DNA from: Candidatus Berkelbacteria bacterium CG10_big_fil_rev_8_21_14_0_10_43_13
Lineage (GTDB): Bacteria; Patescibacteriota; UBA1384; XYA2-FULL-43-10; 1-14-0-10-43-13
Direction of reading: 5' to 3'
NCBI GenBank assembly: GCA_002773985.1
Contig: PEZW01000009.1
Coordinates: forward strand, 23,546 to 87,545
Length of the DNA: 64,000 nucleotides
Shown: piece by piece, positions 8,146 to 59,056 of the stretch
Layout: the number at the start of each line of letters is the position of its first letter
Position numbering within the stretch: position 1 is the stretch's first letter
Translations under genes and position numbers: made by a program
Notes under the pieces: generated by a model
Told to the model about the DNA's origin: nothing
What the model saw: the letters and a program-made list of their open reading frames with translations, nothing else
The model's database searches: none

Positions 8146-8382
8146 TTACATTTATATAGACCTATTTTCTCATAACTAAAATATTTATCAAGTCCCACCA
8201 AGCCCTGCCCCAGGTCACAGCACGATGTCGTAACTTCCAACACACAGTATTTTAAACCCCACAAATGGAGTGGTCTGTAGAATGTACAAGGTCCAGTGGC
8301 ATGGGGGGTGTTGTGGGCGCTAGAAAGCGCCCTACCCCCATGCCAATCGGATACATCGTTCATCTCGTTCGCGCTGGCCAAT

Positions 8383-8937
8383 CTACTGCTGATCGAGAGC
8401 TGAGAAGTCCAGGGCGGACATGTTGTCGACGTTCTCCCTGACCGTCTCCTGCTGGTCATGGTTGGCATCATACCAGACCACAGTGACCACCCAGTAGCCG
8501 GCAAGGTCACCACTGTCCGGGCAAACGAACCAGAGCTCGTCACCGTTGATGCCGCCGGTCGTGTACCGCCAGATTGCCGCCTCATCAGCATTGACTTGGC
8601 CATCGCCGTTGCTGTCCTTCCAGACAAACAACTGGCGCCAAGTCTCGACCGAGTTACTCAGCAATGTCAGCTTGACAACCGTCTTGTTGTCGCTCGTCAA
8701 GAGGCGGCTTCCCTCGACACTGCCCTGACGGTCTCGGAGACCGACGGTGTAGCCGGCACCATCACGGACTGTGATAGACAAAGTCTTTGTGCCGGTTGTC
8801 GGATAACCGTTGCTTCCGCCGGCGCCGCCGGCGCCGCAGCCGACCAGCGCGAGGCTGGCCAGAGCGGTCAGAATCGAAACGACCAACCACATGCTGATCT
8901 TGCGCATCTGTCGCTCCATCGTCTGGATTAGCACCAT
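8383..8937 (-). CDS. Putative lipoprotein encoded in a GC-rich islet
   Basis: Signal peptide plus lipobox LALVGC. The region is about 60% GC against an approximately 40% background. Overlapping alternative-frame ORFs are GC artefacts. Confidence 0.45.
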   Translation of the reverse strand: MVLIQTMERQMRKISMWLVVSILTALASLALVGCGAGGAGGSNGYPTTGTKTLSITVRDGAGYTVGLRDRQGSVEGSRLLTSDNKTVVKLTLLSNSVETWRQLFVWKDSNGDGQVNADEAAIWRYTTGGINGDELWFVCPDSGDLAGYWVVTVVWYDANHDQQETVRENVDNMSALDFSALDQQ

Positions 8938-9083
8938 CGCCTTGTTGGCGATTTATTCCAGATCTCGCTCAAACCATACAATATATTGAAAAAAAATGCA
9001 AGGGGTCGACAGTACCCGCTTACTCGCCCCTGTCATTTTAACCCTATGAACTCTGCGAATCGTCGGAGAAATCTGACACGGAG

Positions 9084-9109
9084 TGTCATCCTGAGCTTGT
9101 CGAAGGATC
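9084..9109. repeat. Short hairpin copy of the TGTCATCC repeat family (tgtcatcctgagcttgtcgaaggatc)
   Basis: Shares the GTCATCCTGAGC...CGAAGGATC core with other copies. Confidence 0.4.
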
Positions 9110-9203
9110 TTCTCAAAAAACAAGATCTCTCCACCCTCGATGAACCGAGGAGTCGAGATAACAATATGAAATGAGTGATTAATTACTCTGTCGCCCATTG
9201 CAT

Positions 9204-9232
9204 TGTCAATAAATTTGTGTTATGATAGTAAA
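9204..9232 (+). promoter_or_regulatory. Candidate sigma70 promoter (TTGTCA -35, TGn extended -10) about 165 nt upstream of the DEAD-box helicase
   Basis: ttgtcaataaatttgtgttatgatagtaa. A long 5' UTR is typical of cold-shock DEAD helicases. Confidence 0.3.
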
Positions 9233-9395
9233 AGTTAGAAAAATTGTTCTATAGATTTCCGAGAAAGTAATTAATAATTTCGACGTTCTATACGGCAATT
9301 GAGAGCTAGTCAGTCCAGTAACTCGACAGGCTCAATAAATTATTAATTATTTTTGTCGTTTTTTGTTTTGCAAATTTCGGCAATAAGAAGGAAAC

Positions 9396-56148: not shown

Positions 56149-56390
56149 CGGCTAATCGTAAAACACTTCAATTTGCCATTCGTTGAATTCGCTATTGGTA
56201 TGACCACTCCACTTCTTCCCACTTTTCAACACCTGAGTATTATTTTAGTCTATAACGATAATTAGTCAAGCCCACTTTCCACACCTAGGGTTTAACATTA
56301 AAAAAACCAGTCAGAGACTGGAAAAATATTTTAAGTTTCCTTTCTTGCTGCCGTCCGCCAAGGCGTACGGCAGCAAGCGGACACACAGGT

Positions 56391-56753
56391 CTAGCCTGTC
56401 TGGACAGTGTAGACTAGCTGCTGGACAAACTCTATTCTGGCTTCCAGCAGGTGGACAACGACCCAACGAAGTTGTTCTTCGGTCGGATCACCCGGATCGA
56501 CGTTTTCCAAACAGCCTTCGTTGTCATAGTGACCAAGATCGGAGTGGGTTTTGACGTATATCGCCACCCGCACCGCAATAGCCACCTCGCAAGGAACAGG
56601 ATGACGACATAGACGCTTCCCCTCGGTATCGACCACCATGATCAATAGGTGATCAACATCGCAGGGCCAGAGCTCGATCCGGTACGGCGCCAGAAACGTA
56701 TTGTCCAGCGCACCAACCAGACACTTCAGCGGGTTCTCAACCTCAACCGGCAC
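56391..56753 (-). CDS. Hypothetical protein in a GC-rich islet
   Basis: 120-aa ORF. Region is about 56% GC. Followed on the minus strand by the hairpin ccagtctctgactgg and an A/T run. Confidence 0.35.
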   Translation of the reverse strand: MPVEVENPLKCLVGALDNTFLAPYRIELWPCDVDHLLIMVVDTEGKRLCRHPVPCEVAIAVRVAIYVKTHSDLGHYDNEGCLENVDPGDPTEEQLRWVVVHLLEARIEFVQQLVYTVQTG

Positions 56754-56872
56754 GGTCTTTCTCCCTTCACGTTGAAATGACTCTATTTTTATACCAAAAA
56801 ATCAACTTTTTTTCAACCAAAAAAGACTCACTAACATGTGAATCTTTTTTTAAATCATTTGCCCAAATTTTT

Positions 56873-58306
56873 CTAAATATTTTTCTCGACGAAATATTTT
56901 TTCAATTCAGCAATTTTTATTCGCTCCTGCTTCATCGTATCACGATCACGAACGGTGACGGATTTGTCTTTTGCAGAGTCAAAATCGACCGTCAGACAAA
57001 ACGGTGTGCCAATCTCATCCTGGCGACGATAGCGCCGGCCAATCGAACCGGATTCATCATAAAAAGTCGCAATCCCCGCTTGACGCAGGTCTGCAATAAT
57101 ATCGTGGGCCAGCTCCGGCATACCCTCTTTTTTCATCAGCGGAAAAACAGCCACTTTGATAGGAGCCAATTTCGGATGAAGCCGCAAAGTTACCTCGCCT
57201 ATTTCTCGTCCGTCTTTGCCATCAGATTCATCGTATGCATCCACCAGAAAAGCCAACATCGCACGATCAACTCCCATCGTCGGCTCGACGACATAAGGGA
57301 TATATTTTTTTCCATTGACTTCATCGAAATATTTCTGATCAATTCCAGAGTGTTTTGAATGTTGTTCAAGATCAAATTTTGTCCGTTGTGCCACACCAGC
57401 CAACTCCGACATGCCAAACGGAAAATCGTATTCAATGTCGGAAGTTCCAGCTGAATAATGTGAAAGCTCACTCTTGTCGTGCGCTCGAATTGTTAAATTT
57501 TCATCTCGAATGCCAAAATCAGTAAAAAATTCTTTCCAGCGCGCCAACCAATAAGTAAACCACTTTTTCGATTCATCCAGACTTGGCTCGACAAAATATT
57601 CAATCTCGGCTTGCTCAAATTCTCTCGTGCGAAAAGTGAAATTTCCCGGCGTGATTTCGTTGCGAAAAGCCTTGCCGATCTGACCGATACCAAAAGGGAT
57701 CTTAACCCGTGAAGATTGGGTAACATTTAGAAAATTGATAAACATCCCCTGCGCTGTCTCCGGTCGCAAGTACGCCGTCGAGGTCGAGTCCTCCGTCACG
57801 CCGATAAATGTCTTGAACATAAGATTAAAATTTTTCGCCTCAGCAAAATCATGCTCGCCACCACTTGCACATACCAACATTTCTTTCTCTCCGTCTGTCA
57901 TCCCGGACTTGATCCGGGATCCCGTCTCCGCGTTAGCGTCAGTATTAAATTTCGCTTTAATCTCCTGAACATGGTCTTCTCTAAATCTTTTGTGACATTT
58001 TTTACATTCAACCAATGGGTCAGTAAAAGAACCAATATGCCCGCTGGCTTCCCAGACTTTCGGATTTTGGATGATCGCCGAGTCCATACCGACAATGTCG
58101 TCACGCTCAACAACAAATCTTTTCCACCATTCGTTTTTCAGGTTTAATTTTAATTGAGATCCAAGCGGACCATAATCAAAAGCATTGGCAAAACCGCCAT
58201 AAATCTCACTTGCCGGATACACAAACCCCCGCCGCTTACACAGCGAGATGATTTTTTCCGTTTTGTTATTTGAATTTTCAGCCATTTCAATATTACCGTA
58301 GCCCAA
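56873..58306 (-). CDS. glyQS: Glycine--tRNA ligase (dimeric class II GlyQS type)
   Basis: Class II motifs, anticodon-binding C-domain. Embedded hairpin at 57896-57921. Confidence 0.9.
   Translation of the reverse strand: MGYGNIEMAENSNNKTEKIISLCKRRGFVYPASEIYGGFANAFDYGPLGSQLKLNLKNEWWKRFVVERDDIVGMDSAIIQNPKVWEASGHIGSFTDPLVECKKCHKRFREDHVQEIKAKFNTDANAETGSRIKSGMTDGEKEMLVCASGGEHDFAEAKNFNLMFKTFIGVTEDSTSTAYLRPETAQGMFINFLNVTQSSRVKIPFGIGQIGKAFRNEITPGNFTFRTREFEQAEIEYFVEPSLDESKKWFTYWLARWKEFFTDFGIRDENLTIRAHDKSELSHYSAGTSDIEYDFPFGMSELAGVAQRTKFDLEQHSKHSGIDQKYFDEVNGKKYIPYVVEPTMGVDRAMLAFLVDAYDESDGKDGREIGEVTLRLHPKLAPIKVAVFPLMKKEGMPELAHDIIADLRQAGIATFYDESGSIGRRYRRQDEIGTPFCLTVDFDSAKDKSVTVRDRDTMKQERIKIAELKKYFVEKNI
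57896..57921. repeat. TGTCATCC-family hairpin (tgtcatcccggacttgatccgggatc) in-frame within glyQS
   Basis: Encodes GSRIKSGMT on the minus strand. Same core as the intergenic copies. A related copy lies just upstream of the gene at 58324-58358. Confidence 0.45.
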
Positions 58307-58487
58307 GTTTTAACTTGTTGTCCTGTCATCCCGGACTGCCACCTGAGATCCGGAATCCATTCCTTTTTTGTAATGTTAATAATATCACAAAATTTATTTG
58401 TCTTCACTCTTGCTTATAGTCTTAAAATATTGTACTGTAATGAGTTCACTCACAAAGTGAGCAAATAGCAGCAAAAGGAGAGCTGAA

Positions 58488-58871
58488 ATGCCCACAGCTC
58501 CAATTCTCGGTCTCGTGATCGTGACTCTGCTGATCGTCCTCGCCCACGTCCTGTGTCAGAGGGCGAACCGAAGGGGGAACAGACGTGTTTTGGGAGTCAT
58601 CGATGGAACGATGGTCTATCATGGCCCCAAGTGTCTTCGTGACGGTGTCGAACCACCAAGGTCTGCTTCTGAAATAGGTGGTGACTTTTTCACCTATCGC
58701 TCGCTACCTGTGTACCAGCCGGGAATCCGTGATCCTCTTCGGGGAGCGAACTTCATCACGATAAATTCCAAGAACCAATGGTGTCGCCGATCGCCTGATC
58801 GCCACCACCACCTCAACGAGGACGGCACCACCTGCATCCACTGCGGCATGCAGGCCAAGCGCTTCGAGTGA
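58488..58871 (+). CDS. Hypothetical protein in a GC-rich islet (possible Zn-binding CIHCG motif)
   Basis: 127-aa ORF with an N-terminal TM. Region is about 58% GC. Confidence 0.3.
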   Translation: MPTAPILGLVIVTLLIVLAHVLCQRANRRGNRRVLGVIDGTMVYHGPKCLRDGVEPPRSASEIGGDFFTYRSLPVYQPGIRDPLRGANFITINSKNQWCRRSPDRHHHLNEDGTTCIHCGMQAKRFE

Positions 58872-59056
58872 CCAATCAACACTGGTCTTCGCTTCGCCCC
58901 AACCCACCCACCGCTGGTCCGACCGGCGGTGGGTGTTGTCTTTTAAAATCAACTCATAAATATTATGTGGCAGACCAAACCATCATCAGCACAGTCGACC
59001 CGCCCAAAACGACAGCCGCTAATTCCGATATTTTACTATTCTCACAAAACAAAAAC

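Follow-up and report, generated by a model that had tools for sequence, protein, structure and literature searches.

Lambdoid phages carry so-called morons, independent units of promoter, gene and terminator that are located between conserved genes. Novel ORFan genes are reportedly enriched in genomic islands, an observation credited to Hsiao et al. 2005, and the textbook foreign ORFans of enterobacteria are said, following the ORFan work of Daubin and Ochman, to be AT-rich. In this study, we analyzed five short GC-rich segments, designated islets 1 to 5, in a stretch of 64,000 nucleotides (nt) from Candidatus Berkelbacteria bacterium CG10_big_fil_rev_8_21_14_0_10_43_13 (contig PEZW01000009.1), which is referred to as the window. 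In 125 genomes of groundwater Patescibacteria, genomic islands and genes transferred one by one have been reported in the hundreds, with up to 13% of genome length being assigned to transfer (PMC12455944), and surveys of GC-rich intergenic regions (GC-IGRs) by the Breaker laboratory resolved 2948 of 4714 long regions as open reading frames (ORFs) (PMC11109978). Our analysis points, with a probability of roughly 0.6, to the islets being independent small segments that were acquired horizontally and reside in intergenic spacers of this AT-rich Berkelbacteria genome. The phenomenon, horizontal mini-islands with orphan cargo, appears real but ordinary; the cargo is unusual and is joined by one RNA candidate.

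The resemblance to phage morons lies in the arrangement of an autonomous promoter-like site and an ORF (plus a terminator hairpin in islets 4 and 5) that deviate in composition and are wedged between genes adjacent in relatives. Unlike for morons, the recipient is a chromosome with its dcw cluster and housekeeping genes, no phage genes are present nearby and there was no match in PHROG or IMG/VR. The islets also differ from the enterobacterial ORFans described above in being GC-rich relative to their host. With the genomic islets of groundwater Patescibacteria (PMC12455944) they share atypical GC content and oligonucleotide usage, absence from relatives at conserved synteny and homologue-free cargo; in addition, the same spacers vary in content between lineages, and one islet is positioned between tRNA genes. 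In contrast to these, the segments described here span only 0.4-0.7 kb with one gene each and have no integrase, flanking direct repeats or identifiable donor. Integron cassettes, miniature inverted-repeat transposable elements (MITEs) and insertion sequences are similar in combining short, single, promoter-poor ORFs of unassigned function with a palindromic element behind them. However, the islet hairpins measure 31-34 nt and lack R''/R' core sites, no attC site, array or IntI was present, and, unlike MITEs and insertion sequences, the islets have neither terminal inverted repeats nor target-site duplications. A transposon, MITE or integron cassette was rejected on these grounds, with repeats being assessed by a repeat scan and attC core motifs by eye; at the islets, the repeat scan yielded intrinsic-terminator-like hairpins alone and no boundary repeats above chance.

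The GC content of the window is 42.7%, with a standard deviation of 4.6% and a 99th percentile of 55.5% for sections of 400 nt. The first-pass annotation of this DNA had singled out five segments as compositionally distinct, 8170-8960 (56.6% GC), 26480-26960 (51.8%), 50200-50650 (54.1%), 56340-56760 (55.3%) and 58480-58960 (55.7%), which correspond to islets 1 to 5. GC-rich segments were delimited by a maximal-scoring-segment scan with a model of 57% versus 42% GC, and the null for the best segment score was a conservative shuffle of 50-nt blocks that included the islets' own blocks (95th percentile 19.1). Compared to this null, islets 1 and 5 are individually significant, and islets 3 and 4 are top-ranked yet marginal (Table 1). 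Islet 2 was outscored by the tRNA-Pro region at 26060-26415 (12.6), the BipA gene at 10461-12508 (12.3) and a 217-nt stretch at 6993-7209 (11.9). Applying a common criterion, we counted four islets in the window; in related Patescibacteria loci (1.73 Mb), their frequency was 1.26 per 64 kb. The enrichment is modest, and numerous matches in relatives fall within ordinary genes. The description of such islets as atypical for streamlined genomes was overstated, as similar ones occur in relatives and both transfer and islands are common in groundwater Patescibacteria (PMC12455944).

The deviation of the islets extends beyond their GC content. In the GC-normalized dinucleotide signature, the pooled islets reached a delta* of 128.5 compared to 50.8 +/- 17.4 in random host segments, none of 500 of which was as high, with AA/TT, AC/GT and GC as the chief contributors. 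The mean GC content at the first, second and third codon positions (GC1, GC2 and GC3) is 0.50, 0.39 and 0.42, respectively, in the host. GC2 is the lowest of the three positions in every annotated islet frame, and the frames of islets 1, 2, 4 and 5 show the periodicity of real genes. Since the GC3 of the islet ORFs ranges from 0.59 to 0.76 versus 0.42 in the host, the excess sits at silent sites.

Apart from the tuf-tRNA region and three further tRNAs (one Arg and two Pro), the window contains a minus-strand block consisting of recO-proS-mraZ-ftsL-ftsI-mur-mraY-murD-ftsW-murG, which provided the basis for a comparison of gene order. Relatives were represented by MraY-bearing loci (designated by L and a number), taken from JGI metagenomes and from the species representatives of GTDB. 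The closest of these loci display 73-74% MraY identity, and the comparison set comprised 164 loci, 160 of them from relatives. Over this gene block, L005 and L006 are collinear with the window, and so is L007 from proS to murD, its contig beginning at proS. The three spacers that harbor islets 3, 4 and 5 are all longer in the window than in the relatives given in Table 1. In L005 and L007, the proS-mraZ spacer lacks the ORF of islet 4, as does the recO-proS spacer of L005 that of islet 5, and traces of the islets were not detected in any of the 164 loci by blastn, tblastn, tblastx or nhmmer. Islets 3, 4 and 5 are insertions into conserved gene order.

Closer inspection of the relatives revealed that unrelated GC-rich inserts recur at the same dcw-cluster spacers across lineages, an aspect of residual interest. 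In L086 (66% MraY identity), a 363-amino-acid (aa) dUTPase-dCMP deaminase fusion (6422-7513, +; 53% GC) that strongly matches phage-type enzymes of nucleotide metabolism in PHROG and NCBIfam is located exactly between mraY and murD, in a gap whose GC content is 16 points over the locus mean. L006 contains a 283-aa Cu-oxidase_4/PgeF-like ORF (1685-2536, -) within a patch of 48-59% GC between recO and proS. Among more distant Patescibacteria, a hairpin-bounded patch of about 51% GC with small Shine-Dalgarno-led ORFs precedes mraZ in L087 (340-960), and two ORF-poor, hairpin-bounded blocks of 58-59% GC (11010-11400 and 11490-11870) follow mraY in L143. The blocks of L143 and L087 had fold z-scores down to -5.1 and -4.7 and did not match Rfam. 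Synteny, spacer inserts in relatives, GC3, dinucleotide signature and homologue-free ORFs all support the earlier suggestion of horizontally acquired cargo; that of lineage-specific small-protein genes is likewise supported and in this case describes the same thing. As a separate observation, a native pgeF gene (Cu-oxidase_4) of normal GC content is present between mraY and murD at 7338-8087 in L087, 6788-7534 in L088 and 11415-12161 in L089 (+). L006 is without pgeF at this position, its PgeF-like gene between recO and proS is distantly related, and the window has no pgeF anywhere.

Sequence searches assigned no relatives to the islet cargo. Among 5.8 billion protein clusters, the ORFs of islets 1, 4 and 5 matched only themselves, and the clusters of all four islet ORFs hold same-species variants only, so that homologues of normal composition, a possibility raised in the first-pass annotation, were not found. 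In Pfam, PHROG and PADLOC, none of the four ORFs had a match; NCBIfam gave no convincing one, and for the ORF of islet 2 it gave none. A phage origin was rejected, as PHROG, tblastn and blastn searches of INPHARED phages and PLSDB plasmids, and IMG/VR were all negative and the lone viral match, L177 (26.6 bits after 8-mer preselection), is not significant. A defence function of the islet ORFs was dismissed for lack of a PADLOC match, and a shared repeat family because blastn among the islets finds nothing. The islets are unrelated to each other and therefore represent separate events.

We propose that small foreign transcription units were introduced by separate illegitimate insertions into permissive intergenic spacers between housekeeping genes and would have been kept there as accessory genes. 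Their source could be DNA taken up by the cells or a gene pool of about 55-60% GC in phages or plasmids not yet sampled, and the GC content of 55-60%, the high GC3 and the non-host dinucleotides would reflect this higher-GC donor pool after little amelioration. By sequence, four of the islets have the anatomy of complete single-gene cassettes, with an AT-rich promoter-like region, a Shine-Dalgarno-like site (read from the sequence 6-9 nt before the start) and a small ORF, to which islets 4 and 5 add a GC-rich hairpin directly 3' of the stop codon. The predicted products are a surface lipoprotein, a membrane-anchored Cys/His-rich protein and two small soluble proteins, all of them orphan and presumably accessory. 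Islet 3 would be the same kind of insertion in non-coding form. It separates mraY from murD and introduces a bidirectional terminator-like hairpin, and a folded RNA of about 500 nt may be made from a promoter of its own. The bounding of the islets by hairpins, tRNAs or repeat elements, as previously described, holds, and the earlier ORF descriptions were right as well, with a lipoprotein of 184 or 174 aa carrying an LVGC lipobox and proteins of 145 (112 from the first ATG), 120 and 127 aa.

Table 1. Islets of the window, their ORFs and signals, and the spacers compared with relatives
Feature	Position	Strand	Remarks
Islet 1 GC core	8290-8950	-	59.8% GC, score 41.0, rank 1; essentially the lipoprotein gene
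Islet 5 GC core	58490-58935	+	58.1% GC, score 23.1, rank 2
Islet 3 GC core	50208-50637	+	56.0% GC, score 17.0, rank 3; non-coding
Islet 4 GC core	56347-56771	-	56.0% GC, score 16.7, rank 4
Islet 2 GC core	26487-26829	-	54.8% GC, score 11.0; marginal
Islet 1 orphan lipoprotein ORF	8383-8907	-	174 aa from MRKISMW; 184 aa if start at 8937; GC1/2/3 0.57/0.46/0.76
Islet 1 3' tail	8170-8382	-	about 50% GC; 11-bp perfect-arm hairpin 8297-8345; fold z -1.9
Islet 2 orphan ORF	26563-26901	-	112 aa; 145 aa from TTG at 27000; GC1/2/3 0.54/0.43/0.59
Islet 3 sigma-70-like promoter-like site TTGACA-17-TAGTAT	50113-50141	+	10/12 matches; faces into islet 3
Islet 3 AT-rich 5' hairpin	50157-50211	+	start of putative transcript; minimum free energy and centroid structures
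Islet 3 bidirectional terminator-like hairpin	50662-50701	.	17-nt arms, 94% complementary, flanking A and T runs
Islet 4 orphan ORF	56391-56753	-	120 aa, GTG start; GGGAGA about 7 nt upstream; GC1/2/3 0.69/0.33/0.61
Islet 4 3' hairpins	56307-56377	-	GC-rich 16-bp hairpin (56344-56377) right after ORF, then terminator-like hairpin with T-run (56321-56307)
Islet 5 orphan ORF	58488-58871	+	127 aa; AAGGAGAG 6 nt upstream of ATG; GC1/2/3 0.59/0.47/0.62
Islet 5 GC-rich intrinsic terminator	58905-58935	+	14-bp stem, 10 G-C pairs
mraY-murD spacer			window 677 bp (islet 3); at most 38 bp in L005, L007 and L008; median 39 bp over 46 loci
recO-proS spacer			window about 1.5 kb (low-GC PaaX/Cas2-like gene and islet 5); about 100 bp in L005
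proS-mraZ spacer			window 725 bp (islet 4); 355-408 bp in L005 and L007

Several points weigh against acquisition from foreign sources. Islet 2 is no significant GC outlier, and the claim of five compositionally distinct segments consequently stands for the four strongest (islets 1 and 5, which exceed the null, and islets 3 and 4, which are marginal) and fails for this one. No donor or homologue emerged from the protein, HMMER, phage, plasmid and IMG/VR searches, and the term foreign therefore refers to composition and synteny only. An integrase, target-site duplication, terminal inverted repeat or att-type repeat was not present at the islet boundaries, promoter-like matches are no commoner than in shuffled sequence, and translation of the islet ORFs is predicted. 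The synteny comparison covers islets 3, 4 and 5, as the loci of the relatives do not span islets 1 and 2. Insertion in this lineage and loss in all relatives examined are formally inseparable, the nearest relative having 74% MraY identity; such a loss is unlikely. The strain contigs are 99.9-100% identical and uninformative for the ratio of nonsynonymous to synonymous substitutions (dN/dS) or compensatory changes.

The alternative that survives best, albeit a doubtful one, regards islet 3 and possibly islet 2 as genes for a novel large structured non-coding RNA (ncRNA) whose GC content results from selection for stable helices, as in RNase P RNA, transfer-messenger RNA (tmRNA) or OLE-type RNAs. 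As noted in the first-pass annotation, islet 3 is devoid of a sizeable ORF: none exceeds 60 aa, there is neither a Shine-Dalgarno-led start nor a stable 3-periodicity, and gene callers call nothing. Stop codons of all three types (TAA, TAG and TGA) are mixed in every frame, which led to the rejection of a recoded or frameshifted ORF. A derivation from a decayed pgeF was also rejected, since tblastn detected no similarity to the pgeF genes at the same position in L087, L088 and L089. The promoter-like site in front of islet 3 and the strong terminator-like hairpin behind it are compatible with a transcription unit, and this hairpin would end the transcripts of both mraY (-) and islet 3 (+); the promoter-like match is at chance level, with a shuffle mean of 1.3 per 1 kb.

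Relative to dinucleotide shuffles, islet 3 had z-scores of -7.3 for a 556-nt unit with flanks on either strand and of -4.2 to -5.0 for the 438-nt core, compared to -0.4 to -1.0 for host coding controls. Islet 2 as a whole reached -5.9 on the ORF strand versus -2.0 antisense (-3.4 sense versus +0.6 antisense for the ORF alone), and the ORF-poor GC-rich blocks L143b and L087b of relatives were also near -5. However, GC-rich coding segments with known domains in relatives, among them foreign ones, reach about -3, so that the folding signal, considering also the values of about -5 for the L143 and L087 blocks, is partly generic and only partly specific, and the value of the z-score as a general discriminator is weakened. 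The equally negative values on both strands of islet 3 carry no strand information.

Comparative evidence speaks against the ncRNA alternative as well. None of the 4227 families of Rfam 15 matched islet 3 at the gathering score, at E<=1 (whole window) or even at E<=10 (islet), and none matched islet 2 at E<=5. The covariance-model scan proposed earlier for the islets returned tRNAs alone, ARAGORN found no tmRNA in the window, and inspection of islet 3 by eye revealed no conserved RNase P P4, tmRNA or signal recognition particle (SRP) motifs. Homologues of islet 3 were not found in the 164 loci (160 from relatives), INPHARED phages, PLSDB plasmids or IMG/VR, which leaves no conservation or covariation to draw on; with a single copy and clonal strain contigs (99.9-100% identical), covariation support is not available from within the species either. 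A decaying insert would likewise look like a single-species element, and islets 1, 4 and 5 are clearly coding by their signatures. Of the earlier proposal of structured RNAs, a live option stands for islet 3 only and a weak one for islet 2. When GC-rich intergenic regions were surveyed systematically, the majority proved to be something other than new RNAs (PMC11109978). Similar to the regions identified by the GC-IGR and DIMPL approaches (PMC6429828, PMC8723152, PMC11109978), islet 3 occupies a 677-bp intergenic region with a core about 13 GC points over the genome, a strongly negative fold z-score and transcription signals. The validated classes have multiple homologues with covariation, in contrast to islet 3 as a singleton with no Rfam match, and most regions entering the GC-IGR pipeline end as ORFs or low-ranking candidates.

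Based on these results, we consider it unlikely that islet 3, whose junctions are the same in one independent contig, is a functional novel RNA; otherwise it would be either a decayed or a non-coding piece of an acquired cassette. Rather more speculative is the broader proposal that islet 3 (about 50150-50700, +) is an undescribed structured RNA of about 500 nt, acquired and retained as an independent transcription unit in the dcw cluster, and that it forms, together with the L143 and L087 blocks, a diverse and fast-evolving class of mobile structured RNAs or small-protein cassettes of Patescibacteria episymbionts. On the opposite strand, an extended -10-like TGgTATAAA (50076-50100, -) is present 8 nt 5' of the murD ATG. 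This arrangement suggests a near-leaderless murD transcript that may have been created by, or after, the islet 3 insertion: since an insert with a terminator-like hairpin parts murD from mraY, murD probably uses a new start signal.

An improbable alternative is that the islets are native, either fast-evolving or de novo lineage-specific genes, with a composition shaped by local constraints such as amino acids, expression or mRNA structure. The missing donors in very deep databases, the lack of mobility machinery and boundary repeats and the AT-rich, host-like promoter regions would all be expected of native genes. However, the GC excess at third positions is not an amino-acid effect, the highly expressed host gene tuf has a GC3 of only 0.36, and the dinucleotide signature remains non-host after GC normalization. 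Furthermore, de novo genes should match the AT-rich host intergenic DNA they arise from, and the relatives lack the DNA altogether instead of carrying a diverged version. Assembly or binning artefacts from chimeric reads of a GC-richer organism are conceivable for a metagenome-assembled genome and in view of the alternative junction that L172 shows at a proS-internal palindromic repeat. They are extremely improbable, and effectively excluded for islets 1, 3, 4 and 5: each of these has the same junctions at either end, at 99.9-100% identity, in 1 to 8 contigs that were assembled independently (JGI, ENA and Logan) from different samples and years. The same DNA was recovered in several JGI, ENA and Logan groundwater assemblies.

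If the islets were indeed acquired horizontally, a streamlined symbiont-type genome would still take in and keep very small foreign units of one gene each, some of them right within a cell-division cluster, and the same few intergenic spacers would serve as landing sites in different lineages. The possible surface lipoprotein and the predicted membrane-anchored protein are of kinds that could mediate host-cell attachment, which reasonably places the islets among the candidate genes for a lineage-specific interaction with a host. From the donor signature (55-60% GC), the partners of these uncultured bacteria might in principle be guessed. Transfer into Patescibacteria is already documented, and the ORF-less, folding islet 3 is the one element that could represent new biology.

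The ORF of islet 1, the product of which is identical to the NCBI hypothetical protein COT78_01245, is preceded by GGAG 8 nt 5' of the ATG. As read from the translation, a signal peptide is followed by an LVGC lipobox (MRKISMWLVVSILTALASLALVGC) that conforms to the lipoprotein pattern L-[AS/V]-[GA]-C. The product also carries an EF-hand-like loop (DSNGDGQVNADE), in agreement with sub-threshold EF-hand matches in the PDB, and is labeled 'EF-hand domain-containing protein' in UniRef. A HMMER scan of 1.84 billion representatives retrieved the protein itself as well as two marginal matches. In a large surface protein, one of these (E 6e-4) overlaps a Big_13 Ig-like domain; the other (E 4e-4) lies on a repeat of an SdrD-B-rich protein. 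The protein may contain an Ig-like, Ca-binding domain. Islet 1 was present at 99.9-100% identity in four independent assemblies. Directly downstream of the lipoprotein gene lies a gene for a 620-aa glycine-rich protein (6283-8145, -) that has a membrane anchor at its N-terminus and lacks Pfam domains, and this surface protein and the lipoprotein gene look like a variable cell-surface locus.

The hairpins following the ORFs of islets 4 and 5 are GC-rich compared to the AT-rich terminators of the host nearby. An AlphaFold2 model of the islet 4 product computed without an alignment was of low confidence (predicted local distance difference test, pLDDT, 52.7). In the islet 5 product, the N-terminal helix is hydrophobic and is followed by a Cys/His-rich domain with a C-x2-C at its end. 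Islet 4 was identical in at least three independent contigs, as was islet 5 in eight (JGI, ENA and Logan assemblies). A low-GC gene between recO and islet 5 encodes a PaaX_M/Cas2-like protein of 179 aa (59159-59698, -) and is absent from the recO-proS spacer of L005; a CRISPR array or other cas gene was not noticed in the window, for which no CRISPR-specific scan was made.

Islet 2 is flanked in inverted orientation by tRNA-Pro(CGG) (26176-26251, +) and tRNA-Pro(GGG) (27148-27223, -), and its ORF has AAGGGG about 8 nt 5' of the ATG. The ORF was recorded on several contigs of the same organism, its cluster has same-species members only, and the 112-aa product modeled by AlphaFold2 without an alignment gave a low-confidence pLDDT of 46.8. 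This islet could represent an older acquisition that has been partly ameliorated, or simply a gene specific to the lineage. The 3'-terminal 11 nt of tRNA-Pro(CGG), CATCCCCGACC (26240-26250), recur 118 nt downstream at 26369-26379, where a T-arm-like GGGTTCAAA stretch precedes the copy. Such a repeat could be an old att-site scar, yet with an extended alignment of 28.5 compared to 23.9 +/- 4.4 in shuffles it is not above chance, and tRNA-targeted integration was tentatively rejected, there being just this 11-nt repeat of the tRNA-Pro 3' end.

Two hairpin-forming repeats were observed in addition. A palindromic element, TGTCATCC(Y)G...GGATC, occurs four times, at 9085-9110 (+), 43200-43224 (-), 57897-57925 (+) and 58325-58360 (+); two of the copies adjoin islets 1 and 5, and the copy at 57897-57925 resides within the proS ORF. 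An 81-aa 'gene' called at 8953-9198 overlaps one TGTCATCC copy and is probably spurious. L172 (ENA ERZ27293412 k141_730710) matches the window only from position 57894 on and encodes Bro-N-like, PfkB and AdoHcyase genes leftward of this point, a breakpoint at the proS copy of the element that stems either from chimeric assembly at a repeat or from a genuine rearrangement. The second repeat, CC(T/A)CCGTAGCTTYAGCGAAGG(A/T)GG, adjoins both tRNA-Pro genes (26289-26313 and 27246-27270) and is also present in the relatives L006 (2882-2911) and L095 (13852-13879), with the L006 copy being translated in the 5' extension of the longest proS ORF.

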